This document shows positions 5,722-64,000 of a stretch of 64,000 nucleotides of DNA, piece after piece (position 1 is the stretch's first letter; every line of letters begins with the position of its first letter). The notes beneath the pieces are model-generated. The model was not told the DNA's origin and made no database searches. It saw only the letters and a list, made by a program, of their open reading frames with translations. Both the position numbers and the translations under genes were made by a program. The stretch is from a virus. The stretch lies in UHGV virus genome UHGV-1352889. One strand, 5' to 3'.

Positions 5722-6025
5722 CGAATTTACACGCAACCCCTTCACCTGTCGCCTCATTTTCCGTGAGGCTGGCGTTGCCATCTATGAGCTAACCCATAAA
5801 GGAAGCGGGAAGGTAAACAATTATGAGGTTGTCATCGTCCGTCAGCACAAAGCGGACAATGATTTCATCAAGGTTAAAGCCGGAGATGAATACCTCCCCA
5901 GCACCAGTGAGTGGGGCCAGTATGGATGGACATTCCCCACTCTTGAACTCGCAAACTACAAAGCCAAACATATCATTCATGAACGTTCTATGGATAAATC
6001 AGGAAGTCACACTTCCGCTAACTAA
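5705..6025 (+). CDS. hypothetical protein (106 aa)
   Basis: ORF bridging ligase and thyX; overlaps both ends slightly. Confidence 0.35.
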   Translation: MKKIPNEFTRNPFTCRLIFREAGVAIYELTHKGSGKVNNYEVVIVRQHKADNDFIKVKAGDEYLPSTSEWGQYGWTFPTLELANYKAKHIIHERSMDKSGSHTSAN

Positions 6026-6641
6026 ATCAGTAATAGATAAACAGGTTGAGGCCGCAGAGATAATGGGTCGTATCTGCTATAAAAGCGAACCGAAGGGCGA
6101 CCCCATTGCGTTTCTCTCCCGTATCATTAACCGCGGACACGAAAGTGTCATCGAGCACATCAACATCCCGGCAGTCCTCTCGACGGATAGAGCGGTGACA
6201 CATCAGTTGGTGCGACACAGGCACATGAGCATCAGCATGGAGAGCCAGAGGTACGTCAACTATGACCGGAAGGGAATCATTTGCTTCGTCCGTCCGCAGT
6301 TCTTTAACGACGAGAAGGTTGACCCGAAGACCATTGAAGAGTTTAAGAATACCTGCCAGAACCTTGCGGAGAAGTACGTGGAACTTGTCCAAGGAGGACT
6401 GCCTCCCGAAGAAGCGCGGGGATTGCTTCCGAACTGTACGGCTACGGTGATTGGCGTGACTGCTAACCTCCGCGAGTGGAGGCACATCTTCCGTATGCGA
6501 TTGGACGGTGCGGCCCAGCCGCAAATCCGTGCGCTCCTTCTGGCCCTCCGGCAAAAGATGGAATTGAAGTACGACCTCGCATGGGCATTCAAGGACATCC
6601 CCGTTGATACTAACCGACTTCATTCCGTTCCAGAACTATGA
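5979..6641 (+). CDS. thyX: flavin-dependent thymidylate synthase ThyX
   Basis: ThyX signature RHRxxSxxxxSxRY present as VRHRHMSISMESQRYV; about 220 aa from ATG 5979 (ORF opens at 5823). Confidence 0.8.
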   Translation: MNVLWINQEVTLPLTKSVIDKQVEAAEIMGRICYKSEPKGDPIAFLSRIINRGHESVIEHINIPAVLSTDRAVTHQLVRHRHMSISMESQRYVNYDRKGIICFVRPQFFNDEKVDPKTIEEFKNTCQNLAEKYVELVQGGLPPEEARGLLPNCTATVIGVTANLREWRHIFRMRLDGAAQPQIRALLLALRQKMELKYDLAWAFKDIPVDTNRLHSVPEL

Positions 6642-7244: not shown

Positions 7245-7751
7245 ATGCACGCGCACGAAGCAATCAACGCAATCGTTTCAACCAAGGTAAACTCACAGGC
7301 TTTTCCCGACCTGCCGGAAGGAAAGGAATCCATGAACGATGCCGTCAACCACCCGAAGCATTACACCTCCCACCCCAGCGGAATCGAAACCATAGAAATT
7401 ACTGGCAAGCTTCCCTTCGCATTAGGGAATGCCGTCAAGTATTTGATGCGGTCACAGTACAAGAAGGACCGTATTGAAGACCTCAAGAAAGCACGATGGT
7501 ATTTGGAGTACCACGCTAAGCACTGGTCCAAGGTGTTTGAAACGTTTGACCTTTACCTTATCCTTGAACAGTTCAGGCGCACGGTGATGAGCCATAGCTA
7601 CCAACGTAGTCCCGAAGATTCCATTCTGGTACGGCTCTTCTATATCTGGGCGCATGATAAGTTGGTTGAGGTAAACCCCGCATCGGAATTGCAACGATGT
7701 ATCGGCGAGATTACCCAGCTAATAGAATCCCTCGAAGCGAAACAGAACTAA
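7245..7751 (+). CDS. hypothetical protein (168 aa)
   Basis: ORF; last gene of plus-strand block, followed by terminator. Confidence 0.5.
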   Translation: MHAHEAINAIVSTKVNSQAFPDLPEGKESMNDAVNHPKHYTSHPSGIETIEITGKLPFALGNAVKYLMRSQYKKDRIEDLKKARWYLEYHAKHWSKVFETFDLYLILEQFRRTVMSHSYQRSPEDSILVRLFYIWAHDKLVEVNPASELQRCIGEITQLIESLEAKQN

Positions 7752-7758
7752 AACAAAA

Positions 7759-7788
7759 CCCCCGGAAGGAAATATCTTCCGGGGTTTT
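7759..7788. terminator. bidirectional rho-independent terminator (convergent blocks)
   Basis: 9-bp GC stem CCCCGGAAG/CTTCCGGGG with 7-nt loop, A-run upstream and TTTT downstream; lies between the end of the + block (7751) and the end of the - block (7875). Confidence 0.7.
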
Positions 7789-7874
7789 CGCTTAGAACCC
7801 AAACAACTTACAGTCCAAACAGAATGATGTCGTTGCGGATTCTTTATACCATGCAGTACCTATGATGTCAATAC

Positions 7875-8258
7875 CTAACTGACAGGAACTTCGTTTTTCT
7901 CAATGCTCGCCATCAGTTCGGCGAGCTTTTTCTTTCTGGTTTCGAGTTGTTGTTCGAGCCTCTCTATCTCTTTGACGTAATCATGGCACGCATGCTTGGC
8001 CGCATCCTCATAGGTGAGGAAGACAGTGTGGTTGAGATATCCGTTTTCTATGGTTCTGAATCGGTGGTTGATGTATTCGATTCTGACACGGGAAACGAAA
8101 CATTCAAAGGCGACATCAGATACTTCAACGGCTCTCACTGTGGGCATGCCACCGCAATGTACGTTAATGAACACCGTGCATCCCTTATACAGGGGGAGCT
8201 TGCTAGCTTCTTCTGCGGTGAAGGTTTGGTTCTTCATACGGAGGGAAGTATGTACCAA
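7875..8258 (-). CDS. hypothetical protein with C-terminal coiled coil (127 aa)
   Basis: ORF; C-terminal heptad-like IERLEQQLETRKKKLAELMASIEKNE; preferred over overlapping + ORFs. Confidence 0.5.
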   Translation of the reverse strand: MVHTSLRMKNQTFTAEEASKLPLYKGCTVFINVHCGGMPTVRAVEVSDVAFECFVSRVRIEYINHRFRTIENGYLNHTVFLTYEDAAKHACHDYVKEIERLEQQLETRKKKLAELMASIEKNEVPVS

Positions 8259-8277
8259 CTTGAAATAATGTCAAGGA

Positions 8278-8883
8278 TTATTTCAACCAGCAGTCAGATT
8301 CGATATCGAAGTGAGCCTTTACGGATAGGTCGCAACCGCATAAGGTACAATAGAGAGGGGCCTCCCCGTTGGTCAGGTCTGCCCGCCCGGAAATTTTTTC
8401 CTTGAGGAATTTGCGGCCAGCTCCTTCGGCTCCACATGTGGCGCACCCCTGCTTCTCTAAATCCGGGGGAGGCGTAGAGGTAGCATACGGACAGGAGGAA
8501 CAGATAGCATAGCGGCGGCGTGCTTCTGCCTCGTCTACAAATCTGTGTCCCCGCCGATACCAGAGAACCATAGTACCGAAGAAGGCCAGTACCTTCTTGG
8601 CACTCATGGGTTCATACTCCCTCCATTCAATCCCCTTATCCCCGCAGGTAGTACAGTATTGGGGAGGGAGAGAGGAACAGAGTTCTGATTCAAAGAGCGC
8701 AACCTGAAAGGGTTCTCCATTATTCATGAAGAGACGGGCAACGGATTTGCGAAGTTGTTCCAGTGAACCCGCGGAAACCTTGGTTCCCTTGAGCCTGACA
8801 CTCATGGATTCAGGGACAACAAACTTCCAGCCACCCGGAGGTGTAACCATAACATGATTGGGGACTATACGAAAAGAGGGCAT
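8278..8883 (-). CDS. hypothetical Cys-rich protein (201 aa)
   Basis: Multiple CxxC pairs (CTTCGD, CSSCPY, CATCGA, CTLCGC). Confidence 0.5.
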   Translation of the reverse strand: MPSFRIVPNHVMVTPPGGWKFVVPESMSVRLKGTKVSAGSLEQLRKSVARLFMNNGEPFQVALFESELCSSLPPQYCTTCGDKGIEWREYEPMSAKKVLAFFGTMVLWYRRGHRFVDEAEARRRYAICSSCPYATSTPPPDLEKQGCATCGAEGAGRKFLKEKISGRADLTNGEAPLYCTLCGCDLSVKAHFDIESDCWLK

Positions 8884-8933
8884 GGGAGAATTATAGCTCC
8901 CATGCCCCCGAAGGTCAAGGATATAAATCCTTG

Positions 8934-11900
8934 CTACTTCATCCGATTATGAATTTCCTCTGTACTCAATGCCCCATCAATCGGAATGCTACCCTTCTGC
9001 ATGAGGTTGATAATGAGTTGCTTCTGCTCTTCGATTAGGCGTTTGCCCTCGTCCGTGGTATTAGACTTCTGCAATTCACGGTTGAGCTTCGCGATAGCTT
9101 CACGTCCTGCTTGCGGACTAATGACGTAGGGCATGATGCCCTGCATGGCCGCGCCGTAGGTCTTGGCACTCATACCGGAACTCTCAATCACGGAGTCCAG
9201 AACTTCCGAACGGATGGACGGGTCAAGCATGTTTGTAATTTCCGTAACGAACCGGACACTATTGACTAGCTTGGTGAAATTCTTCACGGCATCCGCGGTT
9301 TCCACGGCTTCCATGAGTTCCACATCCATCCCGGATTCCATTCTCTTGTAGAAGTCCGGACGCAGAATGCTCATTCGCTTCGACTTAGTGACCGCCGCGT
9401 TGGCATTCTTTAACCCGGCGGCAAGGGCTTCGGTCAAATCCTTTGGACGACGGAGACCAGCACCGAACGTTTGCAACAAGTATGCCGCGGTACTCATGTC
9501 AGGTGTATCGCTAGCAAATTGTTTACCAGTCTTGACTGCCCAGCCGTAGAAGGGAATCTTTTTATTGGCAACCGTCGCAACTCGTTCAAGGGCTTGCCAT
9601 GTATGTCCACTGCCAAACGAGGGGTTCAGTCCTGCGGCCAACAGGATTGCGTTGCCGACTGCCGGGAGAACGTTGACGCTTTCATCACCGGAGAGGCTAT
9701 GCTTGTAATTGAAGTCTTCCTCATTAAACAATTCAGAAGCGGCATTCAGAAGGAGGGATTCTTCGAGCACCGTATTTTCCAGCAGGTTTTTCAGTTCGGC
9801 AACCTTGTTCATCCCCCACTTGTCCACATCCATATCCATGAAGAGGCTGGGCAGGGTTTTGGCTAACACCTTGATGGTCTTGAACGGGTTCATGTATTCA
9901 AGGTTCAAATACTCGAACTCATGCCGCTTCATATCTATGATGCCAATCAAGTCCCCGAACTTATCATAGTCAGGAATTAGCCCACTGTCTGCCAGCTTCC
10001 TCATGACTTCCGCGTCGTCAATGATTTTACGGTCATCGTCATCTCCCAAGACACTGGTGATAATCTGTCGGGCAAACAAAGAAGAGACCGCAGAGGTTGC
10101 AGAAATAGTTCCTACGGAACCAGCGGCGCGGAGGATAGCGCGTCCCAAGAGGTAAGCCCCCTCCTTCTTCATGCCGTTATTGATAGCCCACACACCATCT
10201 ACCCCTTCGCCTATGGCGTGGCCAAGGTTGTAGACTACGGACTGGGCGGTATGGTACTGGAACATGAAGAACGGAGCCATAACTATGTTCAGGATTTTCA
10301 CCCACGAAGGAGTACGCGAACCCGTGGGGAGCAAGCTCTTCACCATGTGGGCAGTATACCTATCCACATACGCATTCCAACTCTGGTCAGTCTGGCTCGC
10401 GTCAAGGAGTATCTGGTCCCGCGCATTGGGGTTGGCCTTGCCTTTCGCCCGTGCCAGTTGTACCTTTAATTGGGTGTCGGCAATCGCTCTCTGGTTAGTG
10501 AAGAGAACAATCTTGGCCGCCGCGTCCGGCAAGCCATAGGCGAAGGCCATCGTTTTGATGGGCCATGCTACCACTTTGCCCGCCATCTTGGCGGCATCCT
10601 TAGCCACCTCGCCCTTCGTCCGTTCCTGTTTCTCGTTCAGAGCTTCGGCGAGTTTGAAGAAGGAATCTTCATTCACTTCTTCGAATTCTCCTGCCATCTT
10701 ACTGAACTCGTCAGACTTCCAGACGTTGCGCAGGAACTCCCCTTGACCTGCGTCCAGCAGACCAAGCTCTTGCCAGTAGCGAATCTTCTCGTTGTACCTG
10801 TCTTCCGCGGCCAGCAGTCTATCCGCGGAAGCCTGTGAACCAAGGTCCTTGCCTTTGGACAACCGCCGCAACTTACGCAACTGAAGCCAGTCCCCGACAA
10901 GGTTTGCGATGTCTTTACTCCCCGTGAATGGAAGTGCACCCGCATGGGTCATTTGAGCTACTGTACCATATAAGTTACGTAACGTGGAATTAGGACTAGC
11001 TATTAAGACAGAAAGGTTAGCCAAGCTACCCGCCTTACTCCCCCATCCTTGACCCTTGCCGGACTTCTGCCAGTACTTGCGCACCTTCTTATAGTCGTCC
11101 GTCCGACTGTTCATGATGTCGTCGCTCGGCCTGTAGATGTGATAGATGGCGTCGGCTACATCCTTGTCGGCATATAATCCGTTCAACGCATTCTTCGTAT
11201 TCTTCAAGGAGATTTCCACCATGTCGGGGGTACGGTTCGTGCTAGTCGCGGGTACGACTACACCCTGTGCCTTGAGCACGGTGGCGTACTCGTCAGCAAG
11301 CAACTGGTTCACGGCAATCTTCGACTGCATGGATATGGTATTCTGCAATGTCCCAATGGCATCCCCAATGGTGAGGTCGCTAAGTTCATACATAGCTTTC
11401 CTCTGCCATTCGGGCAAGCGTTTCCGCTGGGCCAGCGCATCTTCATTCGTCCTCTTCTTGGTCAGCACTTCGTCGATGGCCTTCATGGCATCGCTCACCG
11501 CAAGACGGGAGAGTTCCGGATATTGCAACACTTTCAAGTCGGTAGCGGAGATGACGTTGCCCATATTGTTTGCCCTCATGAGAATGCCCGCCTGACCCCG
11601 GAGAAGATTGAGCGTCTTGTCCAGTCGTTCTGCGGCATTCATATTCGGAGCGTTCCATATCTGGTCGATGGCCGAAGTCGGGATAGTGGGGATGGCCTTG
11701 TTCACTTCGGAAGCCACGGATGCCGGGGATTCAAGGCCGCCGATTTTGTCGGCAATCGTGTTTCCCGGAAGGCTGGAGAAGACATCGGCGAGGAAACTAT
11801 CTCTGGCTTTCATGTCCAGAGTTTCTTTCATCTCTGCCATCTTTGACTTCGTGCGATAGTCTGCCTGTGCTATCATGCTCATGGCCTTGTTATACATGGC

Positions 11901-14900
11901 ACTGATGTTGTGGCCGTCCCGCAGGTCCGCAAGCATTTGAACCCTGCCGAAGTTGTTCTGAATGAAGTCAAGAATTTCTCTGGTCCTGTAGTTCTTGGCT
12001 ACACCTTCGAACAGGAGTTTATAATTCGAAGAGGCTCCCGGGGGAGCTGACACCAGCGGAAGTTTCAACTCGTCATGGAACGCGGCCAATGCTTGCATGT
12101 TGTCCAGCACTTGGCTTATGTTTTCGGACAACTCTGTCTGGTGCGCTTCGGCATGAGCGATTGCGGCTTCCTGCAACAACTTCGTCAGGCCATCATACTT
12201 CTGTGCCATCTCCCCGTTGGGATGTGCAATGATGTCCTTCATCGTCCGGGTGAAGTCTCCGGCATGGCGACCTACGGCCATGTAGGTGCGATGAAGATAA
12301 TTCATCTCCGCGGCGTTGTTAGCCATACGGCTATCCCCAATGAGCTTGGCAATAGAGATTTGCGTCGCGGCAATTTCTTTACGGGAATCGGCGATGACAT
12401 TGTAGACCAGTTGACCTACAACCCCTTGTGACAGAAGCCATTGTTCCGCGGCATCCCGCTTAGCCATATACTCTGCCTGTTTCTGACGGCGTGCATCGAG
12501 GATAGCGTTGTCCCGTTTCAGCCACACGGAACCAGCAGGAGTAGTTACGCCAGCACGAGTTACACCCGCTCTCTTTGTTGCAGCGTAGAAATCATCGTTG
12601 GCTTCCCGGATGATTTGTTTAGCTTCGGCCCGTGCCCTAGAGATGTCCTGAATCATAGGAGCAATGGCGGGGTGGTTTGTACTCTCCGCATAGAGGTAGT
12701 CGTTGCGAAGGTTGGACCACCTGTCCAGAAGTTCATCCATAGAGAAGGGACTGTCCACCTCGTTAATCATATCCGCGAGGTAGTTCTGCGTATCGCGGGC
12801 AAGACTAAAGTAGGAGGTTTCCAGATTGGCATCCCCTGTCGCGGAGATACGAGAGCCAAGGTCGGAGAGCGATTTGTGAATCTGCTGGGAGAGCATGGGG
12901 AGAGCCACCGTCTTGTCCAGCATGGCCCCATATCCCTTGACGCTCATGTCTTTAATCCGGCGCATCATGTCATTGATTTCCAATCGCCCTTCACTATTAA
13001 GCGCAAGGGAGTTGGCTAGACGCACCGCTTCCGCGTGCCTATTGACGGCATCGGTAACGGTCTTCTTAGCCAACGCGATACGGAAGTCGCGGGTCTGTTC
13101 GTGCTGGCGAACTTCTGCTTGGGCCTCTGCGTTAATGCGTGCAACGGTTTCAGGGTCAATGTCGTTGTCCATATTCCCCGACATGTCGAGAATGGACTTG
13201 CTCCATTTCTTTCGCGTGGCGGCATCCCAGCCCAGACTATCCGCACGGCGTTGAAGCATATCACCGATTTTGTCGATGCGTTTAATACTGCGCTCGTATG
13301 CCGCATTCACGTTGGTCCTTTGTTCCAGCACAATCAGCTTCTGTTCCTCGGACTTAACATTGATGCCAGCTTTGTCCCAGCCCTTAGACACGCCTTGCCA
13401 TACGTTCTTAACACTAGTCACCCAGTTCCCGGCATTCGTACCGATAATCTCTGCACCCAGACCGAAGGACAGTCTTTGGGTCATGTCGGTCTCATAGGCC
13501 AACGGGTTGAAATAATCTACCTCATGGCTCATGGTGTAGTCCGTATCGTCTACTTTCCATGATGGGGTGCGAGGCATATCGAACCACTTGCCGGGGGTTA
13601 TGTCCGCGACGCGGTCCACATAGGAATCCCATTCAGCCGCATTCTTGGCGGCGGTGGTTCCGTCCATGTCGTCCGCAGTTTGCCGCACATCTCTAATCAA
13701 ATCCTTAAGCCATTCAATGAGGCGCACGTGAACGGGTCTCCTGCCCCCAGCCGCTTCGGCATAGCGAGCCAAATCCGTGAGGGTTACATTGTCTCCGCTC
13801 ACCTCCGCAATCATGAAGTTCATGACAGGATTGGAGAACGCAACACTGGCAAATTCGTCCGGGCCACGGAGACCATAGTTGAGGTCGGAGGCAAGCGCGG
13901 CGATGGCATTCATCTCATTGATGTCCACGCTAGCTTCATACATAGCGGTGAGGCTATCAATGAATTGATTATAGTTCTCCGCAACTGCGCTTCTAATCTT
14001 GTCCATCCGCTGGGAGTAGTCCGCGTTAGTGGCACGAAGATGACGGTCAATGAGGTGGATGGCCTCATGCAGTACTGTTCCCGTTACGCTCTCAATCGCA
14101 TTGTCCCGGTCCATGTACAGGTCAATGACACCACCGACAAGCTTCCCGTCTGTTCCGTTCATGTAGGTGATACTGGCGGGGGAGGCTATATTGGCAGGAG
14201 CATTGGTGGCTCGGATAGCCACGTCCAAACCAGCGGCATGCAATGCGCGGAGCACTCCGTCAATGGCCGCGGCCTGTGCAGGAGATGCCTTGACGCGAAG
14301 GTCCGAAAGGATGCCGTAGGCATTTACGCCCGTCCCGTCAGAGGGGAGATTGAGAGCGGAGACCCTATCCCCCCACTTGGTGCTGGGTGTCCCTCCCTCG
14401 CCCATGTTGTACATGCTTGCGTGCGGAGAGACGACAATGGTTTCTCCCGTGTTGCTCGTAACCAGCGGGGCATTAATCCCGGTCATCTCGTTCAAGGAGA
14501 CGAGCTTGGTTCCGCGGTCAAGAGGTGAACCGGATGAAAGCCATGCCCCAGTGTTGGGGTCGAACGAAGTAATGGCGGCATCCAAGGTATCCACGGTTTC
14601 CACGGCTTCGGGGGTAACTACTCCCGTATCTACCATGTTAGTGACGGAGGCAATGGCTTGGTCCCTCTCCTTCCGTGCCGTGAGTTCCGGGGATTCCGTG
14701 GTAGCCGTGGGTTCCGTGGGCACCGGGGATTCCTTGGTAGCCGCGGCTTCCGTCAATCCGTTAATAACGTTAATGGCGGCATCGAGGTCTTCATCTCCTG
14801 TAGTAAGGATGGACAGGTCATCGTCTACTTCGATAACCTGAACCCGGTCTCCCATAGCATCAAGGGCTTCCGAAAGCATGGTGCGCATGGTGTCGAGGTT

Positions 14901-17900
14901 TTCCTTATTTGGGAATGACAGGGTATTGGGCAGGTCGTTAATGGCTTCTGCCATGAATGAGCTTGCCGCGGCACTGCCCTCGTAGGTATATATTTCGGAG
15001 GCCCGTTCCACTAGGTTGCGGAACTGGGTGAAATTGCTGATGCCCATACGGGTTGCGCCTTCCACCCATGCCTTCCGGGTTTCGTCGGAGACAACCAGAC
15101 TTTCATGGGCAATGGATTTGTCCACCCATTCGCGGGCAACTTCCGCGGCATCCCCCTTCTCCCCGGCAATCTCGATAACCTTCTTTCCGGTTTCTACCAA
15201 GCTTTCCGGCACATTGTTTTTGGTAATGGCTTTGCCCGTTTCCTCGATGATGTTGCTCGCATCTTTCGTAATATCCGGTAGCATGGAAGTAGCATCCTTT
15301 ACATCAAGGGTGGGAACGGCTTCGGTTTGGAAACGTATGTTCCCTTCCCCAGCTAACTGGCTACCAACGTAGCCGCCGATACCCCCAAGGAAAGCAATCT
15401 TTATAGCACCGCTAATCACTTGGTCAGTAGTGGCAATAGAGGATTCGGAGATTTCTCCGTTCTTCACCAGTTCAGTAAATGCCCATTCTTGGAATTCGTC
15501 TGCCAGTTCTTCGGTGGCTCCTTCCACTGCGGCCTTGCTCGTGCTGTACAGATAGGAAGCAACGGAAAGCGTCTTCTCCTTGGTAGTCATTTCAGACCAC
15601 GGCTTGCTTCTCCATCTGGCCATCTTCTGTTCAAGGGTTTGGAATGGAGATTGACCGCGAAGGTTTTTAGCTCCAACAATCTTACGCATGTAGGAATCCA
15701 CACCTGCGCGGTTGTTGATAAGCGTACTGCCAGCGGAGACCAGAGCCGCACCAAAGAGGGCACGCCTACTGGCAATGCTCTGTGCCCGGTTCGTGTTCTC
15801 GGCAGTCGGTTCCTTCCCTTCCATCTCCCTGTCATAAATGGTATAGAAGATGTCGGAGTAAGCATTCGGTGCAACCTGCGAGATGATGGTAAGGTTTACC
15901 CCAGCACCAGCTCCCGCCCTTTCAAGGCTCAAGGCCGCAAGGTTATTAAGGTTACGCTGAATAGTTCCACTCAAACGTCCCGCCAATCCCGGACGGGCGG
16001 CAGGGACCAAAGCTTCTGCCCGCTTCGCTACGACGTTAGCCGTTGCCCTCGCGAACTTGGTCAGAGCGGTACGTTCCAATGCGCGGCCAGCAAGGCCACC
16101 GATTTTACCAGCCCCCGCGGTTGCCACCATTTGGTAGCCGAGGTTAGCGATTTCCGCAGTATAGTCTGCAAGGATGTTGCCTCGAACAAGTTCAGCTTCC
16201 GCTTCCTGTTTTTTGTTCAGCTGGTCCCAGAGGGTGCGGGTATGTTCCATCGCCGCACGACTGCCGACTGCATTCTGCGCAAAGAGAAGAGCACCATAGG
16301 CGGCCCCTGTCCCAAGGTCGATGGCTTTGTGCGTGCCTATCTGGAACCCACGGAGAATAGGATTGATGTGAGCCTGTCCTTTCTCCTGCCACGCGGAGAG
16401 AATGTCCTCGTCGCTCTTGCCCGCTTCCTTCTGTTCATTGTAGAAATTCTTGAAGGAAAGGTACTTGTCCAGATACTTCATGCTTTCGGTCCAGATAGGG
16501 TAGACCCGCATGCCGAAACCAAGCCACGTATCATGGAGCGTTCCCAGCGTTTCATCTAATGCAATGTTGTCCTTCACAAGTTCCTGTGCGGATTTCGTGC
16601 GGAGGTTCTGGAACTTTTCAATGGTGCGATTAATGAGACCTTCGTCCGCGCCGCTAGCACGGAGAGCCTCAATGCTCTTGTCCATCAGCTTGTTGTCGTA
16701 GAGAGCATTGGGGTTCAGTTCGAGAGTGGCGTTCGTATCAACTTCCTTGGTGTGCGGGTTGTACGCAAAGAGACTGCCACGGCCTACGCCCAAGTCACCC
16801 ATACGTGCGGCATGGGAGAGGGAGTTGAGGGCATCGCGAGTATTTTCAATATGGTATTGGGCCATGTATTCCTTCAACCGTTCGGGACCTACATCAAAAG
16901 AGGGACCCCCCAGTACGCCATACTCCCATGTGCCACGCCTCGTTCCCTTTCTCCACTCCATTGTACTTAATGGGTCAGAGGTCTTGCCCACACTATCTCC
17001 CGGCTGGAGGGTAAGCACATCCGCAATTTGTCCCCCCGTGCTTCGGTAGTTAGCCATTGCGCCCTTGACCGCATCCATGAGAGTGCCTCTCGGCGTAGCC
17101 TTGGCGACATAACCCTGAATCAGATTGGTTACTCCCGCTTGGTACAGGATGGATTTGGGAACCCCCGGAAACCTTGTAGCCACGGCTTCCAGTATAGCCT
17201 CACTCATGCCAATCTGTTCATCGGTCTCGAAGGTCAGGGGGCGGTCCTTCTTGCGACGAAGGTCCTTGGCAAGAACTTTGGCCCTTGCACGTATTGCGTC
17301 CATGTCAGCATTGGGGACTAAAGACAGAAGGGTAGAGGCCGCGGCTTCCGGATTGAGAATCGCGTCGCGAAGTTCGAGGTAGGGAAGGCCAGTGTAGTCT
17401 TCTTCGAGCCGACGTACCATTTTGTCTGCCGCCTCTATCTGTTCACGAATCCTATCCTCAACAGGCTTTTCTTTCTTTGAAGTTTGATGCCTGGGGATAT
17501 AGATATCACCGTTCCGGGAAAGGTAATCCCCGTAGTCGCGGACAAGCCGGAACATTTTGCTGGGAGACTTAGAGAGGTTGGCGAGTTCAGCAAAAACATT
17601 CCCAGTAAATGAAGGTGCTGAATCAGAGAATTCGCCAACGCCAAGCTCCCCCACGTTCGTCTGGCTGGGGGTTTTCTTCTGCACGTTCTCCGTCGAAGCG
17701 GCTCGGTGCTTATTATAGAGAGACTTAGCGGCACGATAGTTGTCAATGTCTTCGCGCCTAATCGTATTGATGATGCTTTCTATTTCCTCCGCAGTGTAAG
17801 CAATGGGTGCGCTCTCGATGGCTTCTGCTTTAGGTTTACCTGAATAATCTAGATGCGAGTTGAGGTAATCCTTCCGGGCCTTTTCCATTGTGCTGGCAAT

Positions 17901-18578
17901 GGATTTGGCCACCGCCTTTGCGTTACGGTTTCTGTCCGCGGCAATGGCGAGGAACTTTTCCGTTACGACGGGGTTCCCGTCCTCTCCCATGCCGAAGCCA
18001 AAGCGGGATAAGAATGCGGGTTGCTGGGGAGAAAGTTCGGAGGAAGAGACTGCGACGATGCCCGTGTTATTCGTAAGCTTTTTAATGGCGTCACTATCAC
18101 CACGAGCGGCGGCCTTCAAATCAACCCGCGCATCTTCTCCGCTGTCTAGGTAGTTCTTTATGTAGTCGATTCCCTCAAAGGTGAACCCACGGTTTCCTTT
18201 GTTCAAGACATCAACGTCAGCCTTTTCCGCGGCGGTTTTCCATTGTTGTTCCGTATGGGCGCGGGTTTTTGTTTCCCATTCTACGTTACGTGCGCGGTCT
18301 GCCTGTTCAATCTGTTTCTTCTGAAAGTCCTCAATGGACTTAGAGACATAGTCATCAAACTCCGCGGTAGCTCCTGCGGCTTTCTCCGCGTGGGTCTGTT
18401 TCTTTTCCGCTAACCTTTGCTCGCGGTCTAGTGCTTTCTGTGCTCTGTCTTCCTGTTTCTGTTTTTGCGTCTCTTGCCACGTGGCGTGCCTTTCTGCGGC
18501 TCGCTGTTCACGCGCGATACTGCTTGCCGACGTCGGAGCGAAGTCGGACATATTGGCGGTACTAAAGTCAATGGCCAT
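8934..18578 (-). CDS. giant multidomain virion-associated protein (3214 aa)
   Basis: Uninterrupted 9.6-kb ORF; coiled-coil/Ala-rich N-terminus; HExxH (VLHEAIHLI) mid-protein; no canonical RNAP DxDGD motif found by eye. Confidence 0.8.
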   Translation of the reverse strand: MAIDFSTANMSDFAPTSASSIAREQRAAERHATWQETQKQKQEDRAQKALDREQRLAEKKQTHAEKAAGATAEFDDYVSKSIEDFQKKQIEQADRARNVEWETKTRAHTEQQWKTAAEKADVDVLNKGNRGFTFEGIDYIKNYLDSGEDARVDLKAAARGDSDAIKKLTNNTGIVAVSSSELSPQQPAFLSRFGFGMGEDGNPVVTEKFLAIAADRNRNAKAVAKSIASTMEKARKDYLNSHLDYSGKPKAEAIESAPIAYTAEEIESIINTIRREDIDNYRAAKSLYNKHRAASTENVQKKTPSQTNVGELGVGEFSDSAPSFTGNVFAELANLSKSPSKMFRLVRDYGDYLSRNGDIYIPRHQTSKKEKPVEDRIREQIEAADKMVRRLEEDYTGLPYLELRDAILNPEAAASTLLSLVPNADMDAIRARAKVLAKDLRRKKDRPLTFETDEQIGMSEAILEAVATRFPGVPKSILYQAGVTNLIQGYVAKATPRGTLMDAVKGAMANYRSTGGQIADVLTLQPGDSVGKTSDPLSTMEWRKGTRRGTWEYGVLGGPSFDVGPERLKEYMAQYHIENTRDALNSLSHAARMGDLGVGRGSLFAYNPHTKEVDTNATLELNPNALYDNKLMDKSIEALRASGADEGLINRTIEKFQNLRTKSAQELVKDNIALDETLGTLHDTWLGFGMRVYPIWTESMKYLDKYLSFKNFYNEQKEAGKSDEDILSAWQEKGQAHINPILRGFQIGTHKAIDLGTGAAYGALLFAQNAVGSRAAMEHTRTLWDQLNKKQEAEAELVRGNILADYTAEIANLGYQMVATAGAGKIGGLAGRALERTALTKFARATANVVAKRAEALVPAARPGLAGRLSGTIQRNLNNLAALSLERAGAGAGVNLTIISQVAPNAYSDIFYTIYDREMEGKEPTAENTNRAQSIASRRALFGAALVSAGSTLINNRAGVDSYMRKIVGAKNLRGQSPFQTLEQKMARWRSKPWSEMTTKEKTLSVASYLYSTSKAAVEGATEELADEFQEWAFTELVKNGEISESSIATTDQVISGAIKIAFLGGIGGYVGSQLAGEGNIRFQTEAVPTLDVKDATSMLPDITKDASNIIEETGKAITKNNVPESLVETGKKVIEIAGEKGDAAEVAREWVDKSIAHESLVVSDETRKAWVEGATRMGISNFTQFRNLVERASEIYTYEGSAAASSFMAEAINDLPNTLSFPNKENLDTMRTMLSEALDAMGDRVQVIEVDDDLSILTTGDEDLDAAINVINGLTEAAATKESPVPTEPTATTESPELTARKERDQAIASVTNMVDTGVVTPEAVETVDTLDAAITSFDPNTGAWLSSGSPLDRGTKLVSLNEMTGINAPLVTSNTGETIVVSPHASMYNMGEGGTPSTKWGDRVSALNLPSDGTGVNAYGILSDLRVKASPAQAAAIDGVLRALHAAGLDVAIRATNAPANIASPASITYMNGTDGKLVGGVIDLYMDRDNAIESVTGTVLHEAIHLIDRHLRATNADYSQRMDKIRSAVAENYNQFIDSLTAMYEASVDINEMNAIAALASDLNYGLRGPDEFASVAFSNPVMNFMIAEVSGDNVTLTDLARYAEAAGGRRPVHVRLIEWLKDLIRDVRQTADDMDGTTAAKNAAEWDSYVDRVADITPGKWFDMPRTPSWKVDDTDYTMSHEVDYFNPLAYETDMTQRLSFGLGAEIIGTNAGNWVTSVKNVWQGVSKGWDKAGINVKSEEQKLIVLEQRTNVNAAYERSIKRIDKIGDMLQRRADSLGWDAATRKKWSKSILDMSGNMDNDIDPETVARINAEAQAEVRQHEQTRDFRIALAKKTVTDAVNRHAEAVRLANSLALNSEGRLEINDMMRRIKDMSVKGYGAMLDKTVALPMLSQQIHKSLSDLGSRISATGDANLETSYFSLARDTQNYLADMINEVDSPFSMDELLDRWSNLRNDYLYAESTNHPAIAPMIQDISRARAEAKQIIREANDDFYAATKRAGVTRAGVTTPAGSVWLKRDNAILDARRQKQAEYMAKRDAAEQWLLSQGVVGQLVYNVIADSRKEIAATQISIAKLIGDSRMANNAAEMNYLHRTYMAVGRHAGDFTRTMKDIIAHPNGEMAQKYDGLTKLLQEAAIAHAEAHQTELSENISQVLDNMQALAAFHDELKLPLVSAPPGASSNYKLLFEGVAKNYRTREILDFIQNNFGRVQMLADLRDGHNISAMYNKAMSMIAQADYRTKSKMAEMKETLDMKARDSFLADVFSSLPGNTIADKIGGLESPASVASEVNKAIPTIPTSAIDQIWNAPNMNAAERLDKTLNLLRGQAGILMRANNMGNVISATDLKVLQYPELSRLAVSDAMKAIDEVLTKKRTNEDALAQRKRLPEWQRKAMYELSDLTIGDAIGTLQNTISMQSKIAVNQLLADEYATVLKAQGVVVPATSTNRTPDMVEISLKNTKNALNGLYADKDVADAIYHIYRPSDDIMNSRTDDYKKVRKYWQKSGKGQGWGSKAGSLANLSVLIASPNSTLRNLYGTVAQMTHAGALPFTGSKDIANLVGDWLQLRKLRRLSKGKDLGSQASADRLLAAEDRYNEKIRYWQELGLLDAGQGEFLRNVWKSDEFSKMAGEFEEVNEDSFFKLAEALNEKQERTKGEVAKDAAKMAGKVVAWPIKTMAFAYGLPDAAAKIVLFTNQRAIADTQLKVQLARAKGKANPNARDQILLDASQTDQSWNAYVDRYTAHMVKSLLPTGSRTPSWVKILNIVMAPFFMFQYHTAQSVVYNLGHAIGEGVDGVWAINNGMKKEGAYLLGRAILRAAGSVGTISATSAVSSLFARQIITSVLGDDDDRKIIDDAEVMRKLADSGLIPDYDKFGDLIGIIDMKRHEFEYLNLEYMNPFKTIKVLAKTLPSLFMDMDVDKWGMNKVAELKNLLENTVLEESLLLNAASELFNEEDFNYKHSLSGDESVNVLPAVGNAILLAAGLNPSFGSGHTWQALERVATVANKKIPFYGWAVKTGKQFASDTPDMSTAAYLLQTFGAGLRRPKDLTEALAAGLKNANAAVTKSKRMSILRPDFYKRMESGMDVELMEAVETADAVKNFTKLVNSVRFVTEITNMLDPSIRSEVLDSVIESSGMSAKTYGAAMQGIMPYVISPQAGREAIAKLNRELQKSNTTDEGKRLIEEQKQLIINLMQKGSIPIDGALSTEEIHNRMK

Positions 18579-35403: not shown

Positions 35404-35436
35404 AATAAAAATCCCCGGAGGGGTTAGCCTCCGGGG
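35404..35436 (-). terminator. rho-independent terminator for minus-strand transcripts
   Basis: Perfect 9-bp stem CCCCGGAGG/CCTCCGGGG with 6-nt loop; A-run on + strand upstream = U-run after hairpin on - strand; sits after stop at 35497. Confidence 0.65.
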
Positions 35437-60913: not shown

Positions 60914-61905
60914 TTGAGAATGAATACTTTGTTTTCGGGGTTAATGATTTTCGAAGTGTAATCAAAAGTTATTTGCATACGGTAGATGATGTCATCCAAG
61001 TACTTGAGGGCAGTGTTTCGGCAATTACCACAGGACCGGGCGAGTTCGAGGTACTCCCGTTTCGTCATGGAGGCTCCGTTCAGCCGCCCCATTGCACGAA
61101 GCACAAAGTGCAGTATGCTGTCCGGGAAGGTGAGGTAGATGCGCTTAATACTGCGCCGGAAGTCCTCATCGATTACCCAACGGGCGAAGTGGTCTTCTTC
61201 CTTGAGCAGGTCACAACGCCCAGCGGCGGCTACTACATCTTTATATTTGGCGTAGTACCGCCACTTCCAGTCGGGAAGTACTCCACCCTCCGTAAGATGT
61301 TGGAGATAGGGGAAGACCTCGTACTTAGGCCAAATGCTCGTCTCATCTATATAGTTGAATGCCCTTGCGTACAGGAGGTCAAGGGAATGGTCGCTAAGTT
61401 CACCAAGGTAGGTGGTGCTGGCGAATGCGCGTACCATTTCCTTGGTCGGCATGAGTGGGACGTTGTAGAAAAAGTCCAGCATCTGGACGAGGGCTTCACA
61501 ATATCCTTCCGTGCCATAATTGGAATAGGCCGCCGTGATGGTGTGTCTACCGTAGGGTGTCCATACCGTTTGAGGAATGGAGTAGACGAATTGGTAGAAG
61601 TGCTCCCAGCGAAGTTCTCGCGGGGTGGAGGGTGCGATAGGTATGTCGTACATGAGCGGAACGGTAGCATGGTTGAGACAAGTTGTCAAGCTCAAACCGA
61701 GACAAAACGTTTTTCTCTTTGACCACGGAACCCACGGTAGCCGGGGGAGAACGTATGCTAAGGAGTTGAGAGCAAATGAGTTATGAAATGAGACACAGAG
61801 AAAGCTGTCCGTTGTATCACTGGGAACTCGTTGAACATAAATGGGTAATATAATTGGGTCCGTGGGTTCCGTGGGTTCCGGGGAGACAAAAGTTTGTCTC
61901 ATCAT
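60910..61905 (-). CDS. hypothetical protein, first gene of the minus-strand replication block (331 aa)
   Basis: ORF; N-terminus PEPTEPTD encoded by tandem GTGGGTTCC 9-mers; immediately downstream of AT-rich noncoding region. Confidence 0.5.
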   Translation of the reverse strand: MMRQTFVSPEPTEPTDPIILPIYVQRVPSDTTDSFLCVSFHNSFALNSLAYVLPRLPWVPWSKRKTFCLGLSLTTCLNHATVPLMYDIPIAPSTPRELRWEHFYQFVYSIPQTVWTPYGRHTITAAYSNYGTEGYCEALVQMLDFFYNVPLMPTKEMVRAFASTTYLGELSDHSLDLLYARAFNYIDETSIWPKYEVFPYLQHLTEGGVLPDWKWRYYAKYKDVVAAAGRCDLLKEEDHFARWVIDEDFRRSIKRIYLTFPDSILHFVLRAMGRLNGASMTKREYLELARSCGNCRNTALKYLDDIIYRMQITFDYTSKIINPENKVFILK

Positions 61906-61954
61906 AAGTCATTGATTTTCAACAGGGGAACTTTCCTTTTTTTATATTGAGACA

Positions 61955-62025
61955 TGAGACATATAAATAAATAAATTATAATATATAATAATATAATAGG
62001 GGTATACATATATATATATATATAG
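61955..62025. repeat. AT-rich tract with (AT/TA)n microsatellite
   Basis: …aaataaataaattataatatataataatataat…atacatatatatatatatatag…. Confidence 0.8.
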
Positions 62026-62196
62026 GAGGGAGCGGACTTGTCTCGCGTCTCACCCCGCCTGATTTAGTTGTAACTATATGCGGCTCAAGCACTTAACCCC
62101 CTGTCTCAACACGTCTCCGCCTTGTCTCACTTGGCTCACTTTTTCACAATCCTTTAACTCTCAATGCTTACCGCAGATTAGGTTTCTGTCTCACCC

Positions 62197-62236
62197 AAAA
62201 GAAAACCCCGGAAGCAGGACGAGCCTACCTCCGGGG
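62197..62236 (-). terminator. candidate rho-independent terminator for a minus-strand transcript arising in the noncoding region
   Basis: Stem CCCCGGAAG/CCTCCGGGG (7 bp + 1 mismatch), A-run AAAAGAAAA on + strand upstream; shares the 14-mer CCTCCGGGGCGATG with the terminator at 35428. Confidence 0.4.
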
Positions 62237-62365
62237 CGATGACGAAAACATCATACCTATCAAATAACCACGGCCACTATACCAAACCTCCAGCCAATGT
62301 CAAGACCTTTGTGCGTCCTCTTGTACGCACGCGCCCACGCGGGTGTACGCCCCATTTCCAAATCC

Positions 62366-62438
62366 CCTGAATTTAATCGAGGGTCCTACCCTAGAACGCG
62401 CCGCACGGGGCGGTCCGCTACAACTATCCACCCGGACC
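62366..62438. repeat. about 73-bp element, copy A (GAATTTAATCGAGGGTCCTACCCTAGAACGCGCC core)
   Basis: 34-bp identical core plus about 85% identity over about 70 bp with copy at 62845; flanked by a 10-bp inverted partner GATTAAATTC at 62468. Confidence 0.7.
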
Positions 62439-62844
62439 CCATCCCCTCCTTCTACCTCGCCACACTGGATTAAATTCGTAAACGCGCGGACTCTGTCGAT
62501 TTCCTCTTGACTTTCTCCCCTGATGTGGTATGTTGCACCTGTTCGCTCCGAACGGCAACCGAACCAGCTAAGCTCAATGCTTCTGGCTATCCCAAGCAAG
62601 GAACTTGCTCGCCACAGGAGCGGACTAAACACTCTCCTTTCTACAGGCATTTTCCATAGTTACGCCCGTGGGTAGTCTCGTCAAGCTACCTGCGGGCTTT
62701 TTCTTTACCGCCAAATCCGCGAGAGCCGCTCCGTCGCATTATGCCCGCCGTGCGCAAATTTGGTCGATGGTAGTGCCCTATCTCCTGTTTCATGACTAAT
62801 GTACCATCTCGCTACCTATACCCCGTCACACTCTTGTAAATTTG

Positions 62845-62918
62845 CCCGAATTTAATCGAGGGTCCTACCCTAGAACGCGCCACAACCGCTGGTCCGCTAT
62901 AACTACCTGCCCGAAGGG
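62845..62918. repeat. about 73-bp element, copy B
   Basis: See copy A; spacing about 479 bp. Confidence 0.7.
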
Positions 62919-62949
62919 TATGCCCGCCTTCTAGGTCGATACGTCCCCC

Positions 62950-63076
62950 CCCGTGGAACGGCCGCGTGTCGATTTTGCTTGACATGGCAGGAATGGGGTG
63001 CAGACCAGATGAGGCTGAAACAGACCAGAAGTATATCCCGCCCGTGGAATGGCCGCATGTCGATTTTGCTTGACAT
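62950..63076. repeat. two copies of a 35-bp direct repeat (CCGTGGAAyGGCCGCrTGTCGATTTTGCTTGACATG), period 91 bp
   Basis: 33/35 identical; each contains TTGACA; CAGACCAGA duplicated between them. Confidence 0.7.
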
Positions 63077-63209
63077 GCCCAGAAGGGTACTCCCTCCCCC
63101 GTACCCCACGGAAAAAATTTGACCCAACTATTTACTATGGGCCACGTGCAACCCCGGAGCCTGGGAAACCGTGGTGGTGTTTGGATTTCCTTGGCATCCC
63201 ATTACCCCC

Positions 63210-63435
63210 TGTACCCACGGAATCGGTGCATCACGGAGCCTTTTTGCCCCTGATTGCACCGGGAACGGTATATCCCGGGGGGCCTGCCTATCTCCCACAT
63301 GTAGCGGAATCGGTATGATAGGCCACCGTATTGCAACGGGAATGGTATACCACCTGCCATGAACTGCCCTCGCCCCTGTCACGGGAACGGTACGCCATGC
63401 AACCCATTGAATCCTCGGAATCAGCGGTAGCCGTT
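63210..63435. repeat. iteron-like array of about 6 ACGG(G)AAyGGTA motifs at 34-45 bp spacing
   Basis: cccacggaatcggtg, accgggaacggtat, agcggaatcggtat, acgggaatggtat, acgggaacggtac, ctcggaatcagcggtag. Confidence 0.55.
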
Positions 63436-63796
63436 TGAGCATGTGGGACTTGTAGGGAAATGGTGTGCAATGGAGACCGAGGAATCCGAGGGTGCAATAC
63501 CTGTTTCCTATTGACACCCTGATATGCGTAACTCGTTGATACTCTAAGCAATCCGCTTCCATACTTCGCATAATACATATAATGCAAAATCGGCAAATGG
63601 TAATCCTACTAATCCGATAGGAATTGAAATTGAAGGTGCCGGAGAAGGCAGAAAAGGGGCAGGGTCTTGCCCTCAAATTGTCTGGTCTGGGACTGGTTAA
63701 GTATCAACAACATGTGAAGCATACCCATGCGGGTATAGGTATTTTTCCCTCATTAATAGTCAAATATTGGACTAATGGTTTTACATTTTTGTAAAG

Positions 63797-63846
63797 CCCC
63801 TATATCTTGTACGGCATATTGTTGCACGCCCCTATATCTTGCGTAC
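63797..63846. repeat. 14-bp direct repeat GCCCCTATATCTTG ×2
   Basis: Copies at 63797 and 63827. Confidence 0.6.
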
Positions 63847-63935
63847 CTGTAGCGGTGCAATCGGCGTGCGGCCAGTCCTTGCGGATTTGCCGTCAGATAG
63901 TCAACTATCGGACTATCTATCTATCTTCAAAGATT

Positions 63936-64000
63936 GTTAGGCTGGACTTAAAAGTTAGACCGGACTTACAATGTTAGGCTGGACTTAAAAGTTAGACGGC
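63936..64000. repeat. tandem 18/19-bp repeats (GTTAGGCTGGACTTAAAA / GTTAGACCGGACTTACAAT), at least 3.5 copies, truncated by window end
   Basis: A-B-A-B arrangement = 37-bp higher-order unit ×2; runs off the window edge. Confidence 0.8.

Follow-up and report, generated by a model that had tools for sequence, protein, structure and literature searches.

A gene-free control region of an uncultured gut phage with two predicted divergent small-RNA units

The flagged stretch of 734 bp (positions 62197 to 62930) lies within a control region of about 3 kb (61650 to about 64650). This region contains no genes, and on either side of it are the two divergent operons of an uncultured phage. All positions refer to the window, that is, the whole analysed DNA of 64,000 nucleotides. 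Our best explanation overall, held with moderate confidence, is a control region that harbors two divergent small-RNA units and in which a conspicuous pair of repeats represents promoter-upstream DNA. We are more confident that the stretch is non-coding and includes a constrained plus-strand RNA, and less confident about what the repeats do.

In the proposed arrangement, each of the two small units would comprise a sigma-70-like promoter and an intrinsic terminator. The leftward unit (62303 to 62197) would give rise to an RNA of about 72 nt, encoded by a hypervariable small-RNA cassette that abuts an iteron-type origin. The rightward unit would be transcribed from promoter P1 into an RNA of about 165 nt (62541-62706), whose CU-rich CACUCUCCUUUCUAC resembles an anti-Shine-Dalgarno sequence. 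This plus-strand RNA would be expressed early and act in trans by pairing with host or phage mRNAs at their purine-rich ribosome-binding regions, and the repeats would bind a regulatory protein that acts on P1 and P2. We infer the transcription of both units from their predicted promoters and terminators. The initial annotation had described an RNA gene or a regulatory RNA region. The two predicted RNA units agree with that description; the repeats on which it had centered are not RNA candidates themselves, as they show neither a fold signal nor compensation.

Genome setting and conservation of the control region

The window represents most of a phage genome of approximately 70 kb from the human gut, since related contigs bridge its end and its start by about 6 kb of small plus-strand ORFs. 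The genome consists of two divergent operons. Long ORFs between 8934 and 61653 are almost all located on the minus strand and include a family A DNA polymerase, a primase/helicase, a helicase, an exonuclease, a terminase, and an ORF of 3214 aa. The ORFs between 1 and 8400 are located on the plus strand, and no credible ORF was found from 61653 up to the end of the window. Relatives were retrieved with a 34-mer from the repeats together with a pattern derived from the region, resulting in 17 IMG/VR contigs; a metagenome scan contributed about 37 more. The related contigs measure 65-75 kb, and the label human gut metagenome is attached to several of them. In close relatives a leftward replication/structural operon and a rightward early operon flank a gene-free stretch of 2.7-3.2 kb. 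The same layout is found in the distant relative L034 (primase 34% identical), with a gap of 2.7 kb (7258-10000). Intermediate relatives were sought via the primase and an early protein, and every contig obtained stops at the edge of the noncoding region. Among cultured phages no DNA match to the region was detected (blastn, 50,697 phage records); the identity of the DNA polymerase to those of cultured phages does not exceed 27%, and none of these phages provided a match for the terminase.

Nucleotide diversity among the relatives is near nil between 62500 and 62890, and much higher on either side. The features of the region and the identities of selected segments are listed in Table 1. For the spacer between 62707 and 62844, neither a fold signal on either strand nor a codon-position bias was found. 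A mosaic junction is located at about 62305-62330, to the left of which relatives split into unrelated sequence classes.

We note that promoters and terminators in the region are predictions from consensus scans. The scan for promoters found 8 promoter-like sites versus an expectation of 3.7 +/- 1.9, a number that is unremarkable alone. An Infernal/Rfam search, proposed in the initial annotation, did not assign the region to any known RNA: at the gathering threshold no Rfam 15 family matches anywhere in the window, and a scan of 61600-64000 with an E-value threshold gave only a chance-level miRNA match at 63638. A search with ARAGORN found neither a tRNA nor a tmRNA.

Table 1. Features of the control region and sequence identity of selected segments. 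Promoters, terminators and RNAs are predictions; identities are to the window, in the 16 genomes carrying both compared regions.
Feature	Position	Strand	Identity	Description
Origin-like iteron cluster	61674-62193			directly left of the minus-strand terminator
Minus-strand intrinsic terminator	62197-62237	-		stem 62237..62205 and U-run; fold z = -4.7
Predicted minus-strand RNA	62268-62197	-		about 72 nt; the window's allele of a hypervariable cassette
Minus-unit promoter	62303-62276	-		TTGACA-16-TG-n-TATAGT; sigma-70-type; 11/12 consensus plus extended -10 TG
Repeat copy A	62366-62459		94.7%	between two divergent promoters, upstream of P1
Site S2	62462-62477			partial third occurrence, inverted, of the repeat's initial 16 nt
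Diverged promoter motif CTGTCGATTTCCTCTTGACT and P1	62489-62534	+		
P1	62507-62534	+		TTGACT-16-TG-n-TATGTT, sigma-70-like
Segment 62500-62706	62500-62706		98.1%	
Predicted plus-strand sRNA	62541-62706	+		about 165 nt, from P1 to an intrinsic terminator
sRNA 5' domain	62541-62625	+		9-bp closing stem, three-way junction, two hairpins
sRNA CU-rich single-stranded stretch	62626-62663	+		about 38 unpaired nt, contains CACUCUCCUUUCUAC
sRNA terminator	62664-62706	+		13-bp stem 62664-62697, then UUUUUCUUU
Spacer	62707-62844		98.6%	most conserved stretch of the region, above even the plus-strand sRNA
Repeat copy B	62845-62938		96.3%	upstream of promoter motif P2, downstream of the plus-strand terminator
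Promoter motif P2	62962-62984	+		CCGCGTGTCGATTTTGCTTGACA; no recognisable -10
Promoter motif P3	63053-63075	+		second copy of the P2 motif; no recognisable -10
Segment 63200-63500	63200-63500		86.4%	
DNA polymerase gene			96.3%	
Neighbouring genes			89.1%	

The two predicted small-RNA units

The best candidate for an RNA is the plus-strand segment 62541-62706, located between the repeats and missed in the initial annotation. Its 166 nt fold with -58 kcal/mol (z = -4.4). The consensus fold comprises 38 pairs that are kept in 99.9% of the cells across 19 distinct variants from about 48 loci. The hairpin at 62596-62608 occurs in two forms, AGCAAG-GAA-CUUGCU and GCGGG-GAA-UCCGC, between which two pairs are doubly compensated, a further pair changes from GC to GU, and the GAA loop stays the same. 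The covariation of the sRNA rests on this one hairpin, which was probably swapped in a single event. Of the five helices, one is compensated, three are invariant, and a single uncompensated break, a singleton, occurs in the terminator helix; that most stems never vary is due to the closeness of the relatives. The comparison with related phages, suggested earlier as a check for covariation, yielded compensation in this single plus-strand hairpin and none in the stem proposed for the repeats. We regard the predicted structure of the sRNA as supported, not proven, by these patterns.

Further evidence is provided by the distribution of the remaining changes. Ten of the 11 other variable columns of the sRNA are unpaired, though 46% of its columns are paired (binomial p = 0.012). 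Four invariant G.U pairs correspond to C.A mismatches on the opposite strand, and therefore the plus strand is indicated. Across the 16 genomes compared, conservation of the sRNA segment exceeds that of the gene for DNA polymerase (98.1% vs 96.3%). The hexamers of P1 are invariant in 25 variants, with changes limited to the spacer and the n of the TGn element. A covariance model of the sRNA identified a partial homologue (3' half) in a distant clade, with an E-value of about 3.5e-4 that is to be read as a rough value.

The sRNA is not a leader, because the next rightward ORF, about 1.9 kb distant, is served by a promoter of its own. Within the phage, no target scored above chance; the hits of blastn-short and RNAduplex against the window were at chance level or spurious. 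One natural variant, L091, has a deletion of 62672-63038, which comprises the sRNA terminator, the spacer, repeat copy B, and P2; the deletion apparently arose by recombination between two CGCCCGTGG 9-mers. This variant keeps the body of the sRNA, which ends at a small hairpin and a T-run preceding P3.

The second unit is located on the minus strand. Its terminator, already noted in the initial annotation, is real and consists of a 14-bp stem (62237..62205) followed by TTTTCTTTT. A 14-mer within it, CCTCCGGGGCGATG, was correctly said to be shared with a second site: it occurs at 62228 and 35428 only, the latter within a minus-strand terminator-like hairpin behind an ORF (35436..35413). The promoter of the unit is the best promoter match of the region and lies about 40 nt upstream of the terminator. 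The body is hypervariable, with at least 8 alleles in about 5 unrelated families and lengths of 35-110 nt among near-identical phages; phages with swapped bodies are otherwise 90-97% identical. What these relatives preserve is the promoter format and the terminator (CCCCGGAGG...CTTCCGGGGUUUU), whereas the body is swapped. The promoter format TTGAC(A/T)-16-TAxxxT is present in all 8 alleles, and the terminator type is kept in all alleles as well as in distant clades. One allele consists of two units in tandem, and two longer alleles fold with z = -4.2 and -4.1, respectively.

In distant clades a predicted RNA of about 190-210 nt is found with the same promoter type and terminator as the minus unit, and its central stem shows compensated pairs between two clades. 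This distant-clade RNA, which is matched by the covariance model of the plus-strand sRNA, has the opposite orientation relative to the flanking operons. Both units of the window and the distant-clade RNA may belong to one loose family.

A reading that dispenses with functional RNAs altogether, which we consider unlikely, is that the whole stretch acts at the DNA level only, as an origin, a packaging region or a transcription-factor hub that contains promoter- and terminator-like sites, and that its conservation would reflect dense protein binding. Such a role is consistent with the iteron cluster and AT-rich tract that adjoin the stretch, with many short-repeat arrays further on, with the breaks of contigs from many assemblies at this location, and with the unstructured spacer (62707-62844) being the most conserved part. 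It leaves unaccounted for the compensated hairpin swap that preserves the GAA loop, the strand-specific G.U pairs, the placement of substitutions in unpaired columns of the sRNA, and the strict promoter-body-terminator format of the 8 minus-strand alleles.

The adjoining iteron cluster also bears on the role of the minus unit. Eight of the 10 exact copies of TGAGACA in the 64-kb window lie within 61674-62193, in plus orientation to the left and in minus orientation to the right of a TA-rich tract (61960-62025). Close relatives harbor other repeated words at this position. The minus unit might be an origin-associated transcript, i.e., a primer or activator RNA directed toward the iterons and the AT-rich tract, and not a trans-acting regulator. 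For lambda oop a function as an origin primer or activator RNA was historically proposed, and such a role has been shown for origin promoters of T7 and T4. The promoter of the minus unit faces the iteron cluster, the end of its terminator is 4 nt from the last iteron (62187-62193), and the unit is located on the replication-module side of the mosaic junction, with a body that varies between phages. We nonetheless judge an origin transcript improbable: a strong terminator is situated between the promoter and the AT-rich tract, and the alleles differ even among phages with the same iteron word (the window vs L054; L008 vs L047 vs L091). The RNA body is therefore not simply co-inherited with the origin, and turnover of the cassette is faster than that of the origin module.

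The repeat pair and its promoter motifs

The two copies of the direct repeat had been located in the initial annotation and given a length of about 73 bp. The existence and the positions of the pair hold, and its actual length is 94 nt (62366-62459 and 62845-62938), with 79% identity between copies located 479 nt apart. A 34-bp identical core had likewise been recognized: the 34-mer GAATTTAATCGAGGGTCCTACCCTAGAACGCGCC occurs exactly twice (62369 and 62848), versus 0 matches expected from 100 shuffles, and no further copy of the core exists elsewhere in the 64 kb even with 3 mismatches. In both copies the initial 37 nt hardly vary, and they contain the palindrome AGGGT-CCT-ACCCT within the exact core; the remainder differs by about 30% between the copies, and copy A includes an 8-nt patch (62406-62413) with 4 alleles. 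Conservation among relatives, on which the earlier reading of the repeats had been made to depend, is complete as far as the 45 loci holding both copies are concerned (45/45, with the spacing fixed at 478-479 nt); in distant clades the repeats are not detectable. A likeness to CCTAGAAC..GCGC noticed by eye in L034 was dropped, as its Smith-Waterman scores lie inside the shuffle range.

Allowing for gaps, the similarity between the copies extends over about 150 nt and into a common TGTCGATTT..TTGAC motif. Each repeat lies about 45 nt upstream of such a conserved promoter motif, and the distance from the start of the repeat to the TTGAC hexamer is 141 nt for copy A vs 134 nt for copy B. Because each repeat precedes a motif of this type, repeat and motif together constitute a duplicated cassette of about 150 bp. 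The repeats appear to be the upstream halves of this cassette, that is, duplicated promoter-upstream DNA and not folded RNA. Most likely they are protein-binding DNA, providing putative sites for a regulator of P1 and P2. The promoter-upstream role would rest mainly on P1, with P2 and P3 having no recognisable -10.

The motif itself has the shared form TGTCGATTT(T/C)..C.TTGAC. The full motif CCGCATGTCGATTTTGCTTGACA is found at 62962 and 63053, a diverged form at 62489, and the 23-mer is present four times in L034; no other non-coding word of the lineage is conserved as deeply as CCGCATGTCGATTTTGCTTGACA. The promoter motif also begins a contig of an Oscillibacter MAG, which is a weak host hint; no protein similarity between this contig and the phage was detected.

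The initial annotation took the repeats for parts of candidate structured RNAs, and in a wider form of this view the repeats would themselves constitute structured or functional RNAs or be included in them. Copy A would, for example, be closed by a long stem formed by GAATTTAATC and GATTAAATTC, or else copy B would make up the 3' end portion of a longer transcript from P1 extending past the terminator. The inverted partner of copy A does exist (arms 62369-62384 and 62462-62477, 16 nt, 88% complementary), and copy B has no partner arm. The proposed folding with RNAfold, run on 62360-62485, resulted in a minimum free energy structure that indeed uses an 11-bp closing stem, with an energy no better than that of shuffles. 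The same holds on both strands and for both copies: compared with shuffled sequence, copy A has z = -1.1 and +0.7 on the two strands, whereas the spacer plus copy B has z = +1.5 and +0.95. The long stem fails in the comparison of relatives, where three single-arm changes and no compensated change were found. Neither copy is preceded by a promoter; copy A is located upstream of P1, between divergent promoters, copy B is located behind a terminator with a 13-bp stem, and there are no Rfam matches. A few features remain in favor of an RNA. At 62388 a common A-to-G substitution converts one U-A pair of the small hairpin AGGGU-CCU-ACCCU to U.G, which applies to the plus strand only; the C-rich 3' halves of the repeats hold CCUCCUUCUAC-like motifs that resemble the CU stretch of the sRNA; and the block 62500-62890, including the core of copy B, is conserved uniformly. 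Taken together, an RNA role of the repeats is in our assessment decidedly improbable.

Several specific kinds of repeat were considered. N4-type hairpin promoters, which serve the virion RNA polymerase, have a stem of 5-7 bp and a 3-nt loop, and AGGGT-CCT-ACCCT within the conserved repeat has this geometry. Its pairing is weakened by an A-to-G change in copy A of many relatives. The 3214-aa ORF, as a potential virion RNA polymerase, has no sequence match in Pfam, PHROG or PDB, and among the large ORFs covered by the scan there was no further RNA polymerase. A miniature inverted-repeat element was rejected: inverted ends surround copy A, but the core has no other copies in the 64 kb. Likewise, the copies do not correspond to a type III toxin-antitoxin RNA or pseudo-ToxI, being 479 nt apart, not in tandem, and without an adjacent ORF.

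The earlier claim that the stretch contains no protein-like ORF is borne out by even codon-position substitutions, an indel at 62487, and zero Pfam matches. The opposing view, that small proteins are encoded on the minus strand through open frames of 57 and 116 codons, is very improbable. These frames cross both repeats in one frame (..ARSRVGPSIKF..), and stop-free frames of about 100-150 codons remain in most relatives. Within 62300-62990, however, substitutions in ORFs among relatives are equal over the three codon positions (20:18:22 and 9:7:8), the indel at 62487 is of 1 nt, the frame is broken in the closest relative L019, and the candidate ORFs of the region have no Pfam matches. In addition, the G-rich minus strand is compositionally stop-poor (GC skew -0.22). 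The coding hypothesis was rejected on the basis of the even substitutions, the indel, the broken frame, and the missing Pfam match.

Finally, that S2 (62462-62477) and S3 (62848-62863) are recombination sites of an invertible P1-sRNA switch is scarcely credible: inverted arms (62462-62478 and 62847-62863, 17 nt, 88% complementary) bracket P1, the sRNA and the spacer, and the homologous RNA of the distant clade is opposite relative to its flanking operons, yet one orientation and spacing is found in 45/45 assemblies with both repeat copies, and no recombinase is present among the ORFs scanned.

Implications and comparison with known systems

Small RNAs of virulent phages are poorly known, and for uncultured gut phages almost nothing is known. 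The lineage described here keeps about 3 kb, 4% of its genome, gene-free, including the relative whose primase is 34% identical. If the RNAs are real, the conserved plus-strand RNA is a candidate regulator of host takeover, and the hypervariable cassette provides a compact natural example of fast turnover of RNA genes. We tentatively put forward a more far-reaching possibility, namely an RNA island, carried by a widespread lineage of gut phages, in which a near-invariant sRNA of about 165 nt lies adjacent to a cassette with a swappable body and a fixed promoter and terminator, both under the control of the 37-bp cores. Such swapping of bodies would be the pattern expected of RNA weapons or decoys in phage-host or phage-phage conflict. 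If the units are silent, the finding reduces to an ordinary repeat-rich origin/promoter region.

The closest comparison is with short phage RNAs that are delimited by a host-type promoter of their own and an intrinsic terminator. The oop RNA of phage lambda has a length of 77 nt and adjoins the origin. In virulent Pseudomonas phages, short promoter-to-terminator RNAs were mapped by ONT-cappable-seq, one of them upstream of a primase/helicase gene (PMC10914365). The units of the window resemble these RNAs in size (about 70-200 nt), in being bounded by a promoter and a terminator (both predicted here), in their intergenic or 5' location near replication genes, and in their conservation at the genus level. 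They differ in having no sequence or Rfam relationship to either. Unlike oop, the units are not antisense to any gene and have no leader role for a nearby ORF; an oop-type antisense RNA was rejected, as no credible ORF lies opposite either unit.

With respect to its architecture, the plus-strand sRNA can be compared to RsaE/RoxS, base-pairing sRNAs of the Gram-positive type whose C/U-rich single-stranded motifs pair with Shine-Dalgarno regions. In the predicted sRNA, too, a folded 5' domain is followed by CU-rich unpaired sequence (CUCUCCUUUCU) and then by a terminator hairpin that carries a U-tail. Its sequence is not similar to theirs, and the phage genome yielded no convincing target for it. 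A further analogue is the pRNA of phi29 (Rfam RF00044), a phage RNA of about 170 nt from a terminal non-coding region. The sRNA is of similar size, has paired ends that close a multi-helix domain, and is highly conserved within a non-coding region; unlike pRNA, it has an intrinsic terminator at its 3' end and no Rfam match.

At the level of DNA, the cassettes are reminiscent of the promoters A1, A2 and A3 of phage T7, which are early promoters arranged in tandem where the genome begins and have upstream sequences in common. In both cases repeated cassettes of the same orientation are located in gene-free DNA upstream of early genes, and the repeated motif includes the -35 hexamer. Different from T7, a recognisable -10 is present at P1 only, P1 would drive a terminated small RNA, and the early operon has its own proximal promoter (L015, 6564-6591). 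Iteron-type origins occur in lambdoid phages and plasmids, and the segment 61674-62193 is similar to these in its opposed 7-mer clusters around an AT-rich tract and in being an origin-like module that is swapped between relatives. This likeness concerns the neighbouring segment only, and neither the repeats nor the sRNA. The RNAs predicted in the window fall into no described family and appear to be phage-encoded small RNAs of a known kind.

Spacer, inverted repeat and natural deletion

The most conserved part of the non-coding region (98.6%) is the spacer at 62707-62844, between the predicted small RNA (sRNA) and the second copy of the direct repeat (copy B). The spacer gives no signal of folding or of coding and lacks a clear promoter; the promoter motif seems to recur, inverted and decayed, in the first 25 nt. 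A 17-nt inverted repeat encloses exactly the predicted sRNA promoter (P1), the sRNA and the spacer, a layout reminiscent of an invertible switch. This segment is found in a single orientation in 45 of 45 assemblies, and flipped in none. In the related contig L091, a deletion has removed the terminator of the sRNA along with the spacer, copy B and the promoter motif copy P2; recombination between two CGCCCGTGG 9-mers is the apparent cause.

Coordinates of the features (window positions unless a contig is named)
Feature	Position	Remark
17-nt inverted repeat	62462-62478; 62847-62863	two arms
Natural deletion variant	L091 6737-7251	window 62196-62671 joined to 63039
Origin-like module	61674-62193	TGAGACA cluster around TA-rich tract
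TTGACA-17-TACCGT to ATG	61653-61689	promoter-like; end 7 nt before ATG at 61653
23-mer CCGCATGTCGATTTTGCTTGACA	62962-62984; 63053-63075	exact word
CCGCATGTCGATTTTGCTTGACA sites in L034	L034 8669-8692; 8808-8830; 8888-8914; 9180-9213	
Tandem array unit GTTAGGCTGGACTTAWAAA		19 nt, ~10 times
Tandem array unit CTTGAAGCC		7 times
Tandem array unit GGGGAACCG		~5 times
Contig break points	61960-62040; 62770; 62937-62944; ~64000-64200	
3214-aa ORF	8934-18578	minus strand

Origin-like module and leftward operon

Eight of the ten exact TGAGACA copies in the whole window fall within the origin-like module, in plus orientation to the left of the TA-rich tract (61960-62025) and in minus orientation to its right. 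Near-identical phages carry different repeated words at this site, namely AGGACC, TGTCAC/ATGACA and AACAAGCA, and the phages with such other words also have divergent primase-side genes, which together suggests that replication modules are exchanged between near-identical phages. In the distant relative L034 (9960-10001), the primase ATG follows 13 nt after the end of a perfect TTGACA-16-TATAAT; judged from these promoter-like sequences, the first mRNA of the leftward operon may have almost no leader.

Conserved words, arrays and contig ends

The 23-mer CCGCATGTCGATTTTGCTTGACA is identical across phages with only 34% primase identity. It also stands at the very start (1-25) of a 6.6-kb contig from a human-gut Oscillibacter MAG bin, a contig that resembles the phage in none of its proteins; the match either hints weakly at the host or stems from a chimeric end of the contig. 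Further right, the non-coding blocks 63076-63185 and 63500-63597 retain 73-78% identity to distant clades, a conservation about equal to that of the DNA polymerase gene at this range. The latter block carries TTGATA-18-CATACT and the minus-strand word CGATTTTGC. GGAAYGGTA-like words and CCACGGAA are dispersed across 63100-63470. Tandem arrays run on past the window end (window 63935-63997; 6016-6500 in the related contig L015).

Contigs from many independent assemblies start or end within the non-coding region; the breaks fall on the TA repeat, on the C8 run that follows copy B and on the 19-nt arrays. Contigs retrieved via flanking proteins reach no further than the edges of the region. Such breaks look like assembly failure at repeats combined with strain variation, and not like genome termini of fixed position.

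Giant minus-strand ORF

The 3214-aa ORF has no sequence match in Pfam, PHROG or PDB; its counterparts in relatives comprise 3199-3202 aa. It might conceal a virion RNA polymerase, comparable to those of N4-like or crAss-like phages.
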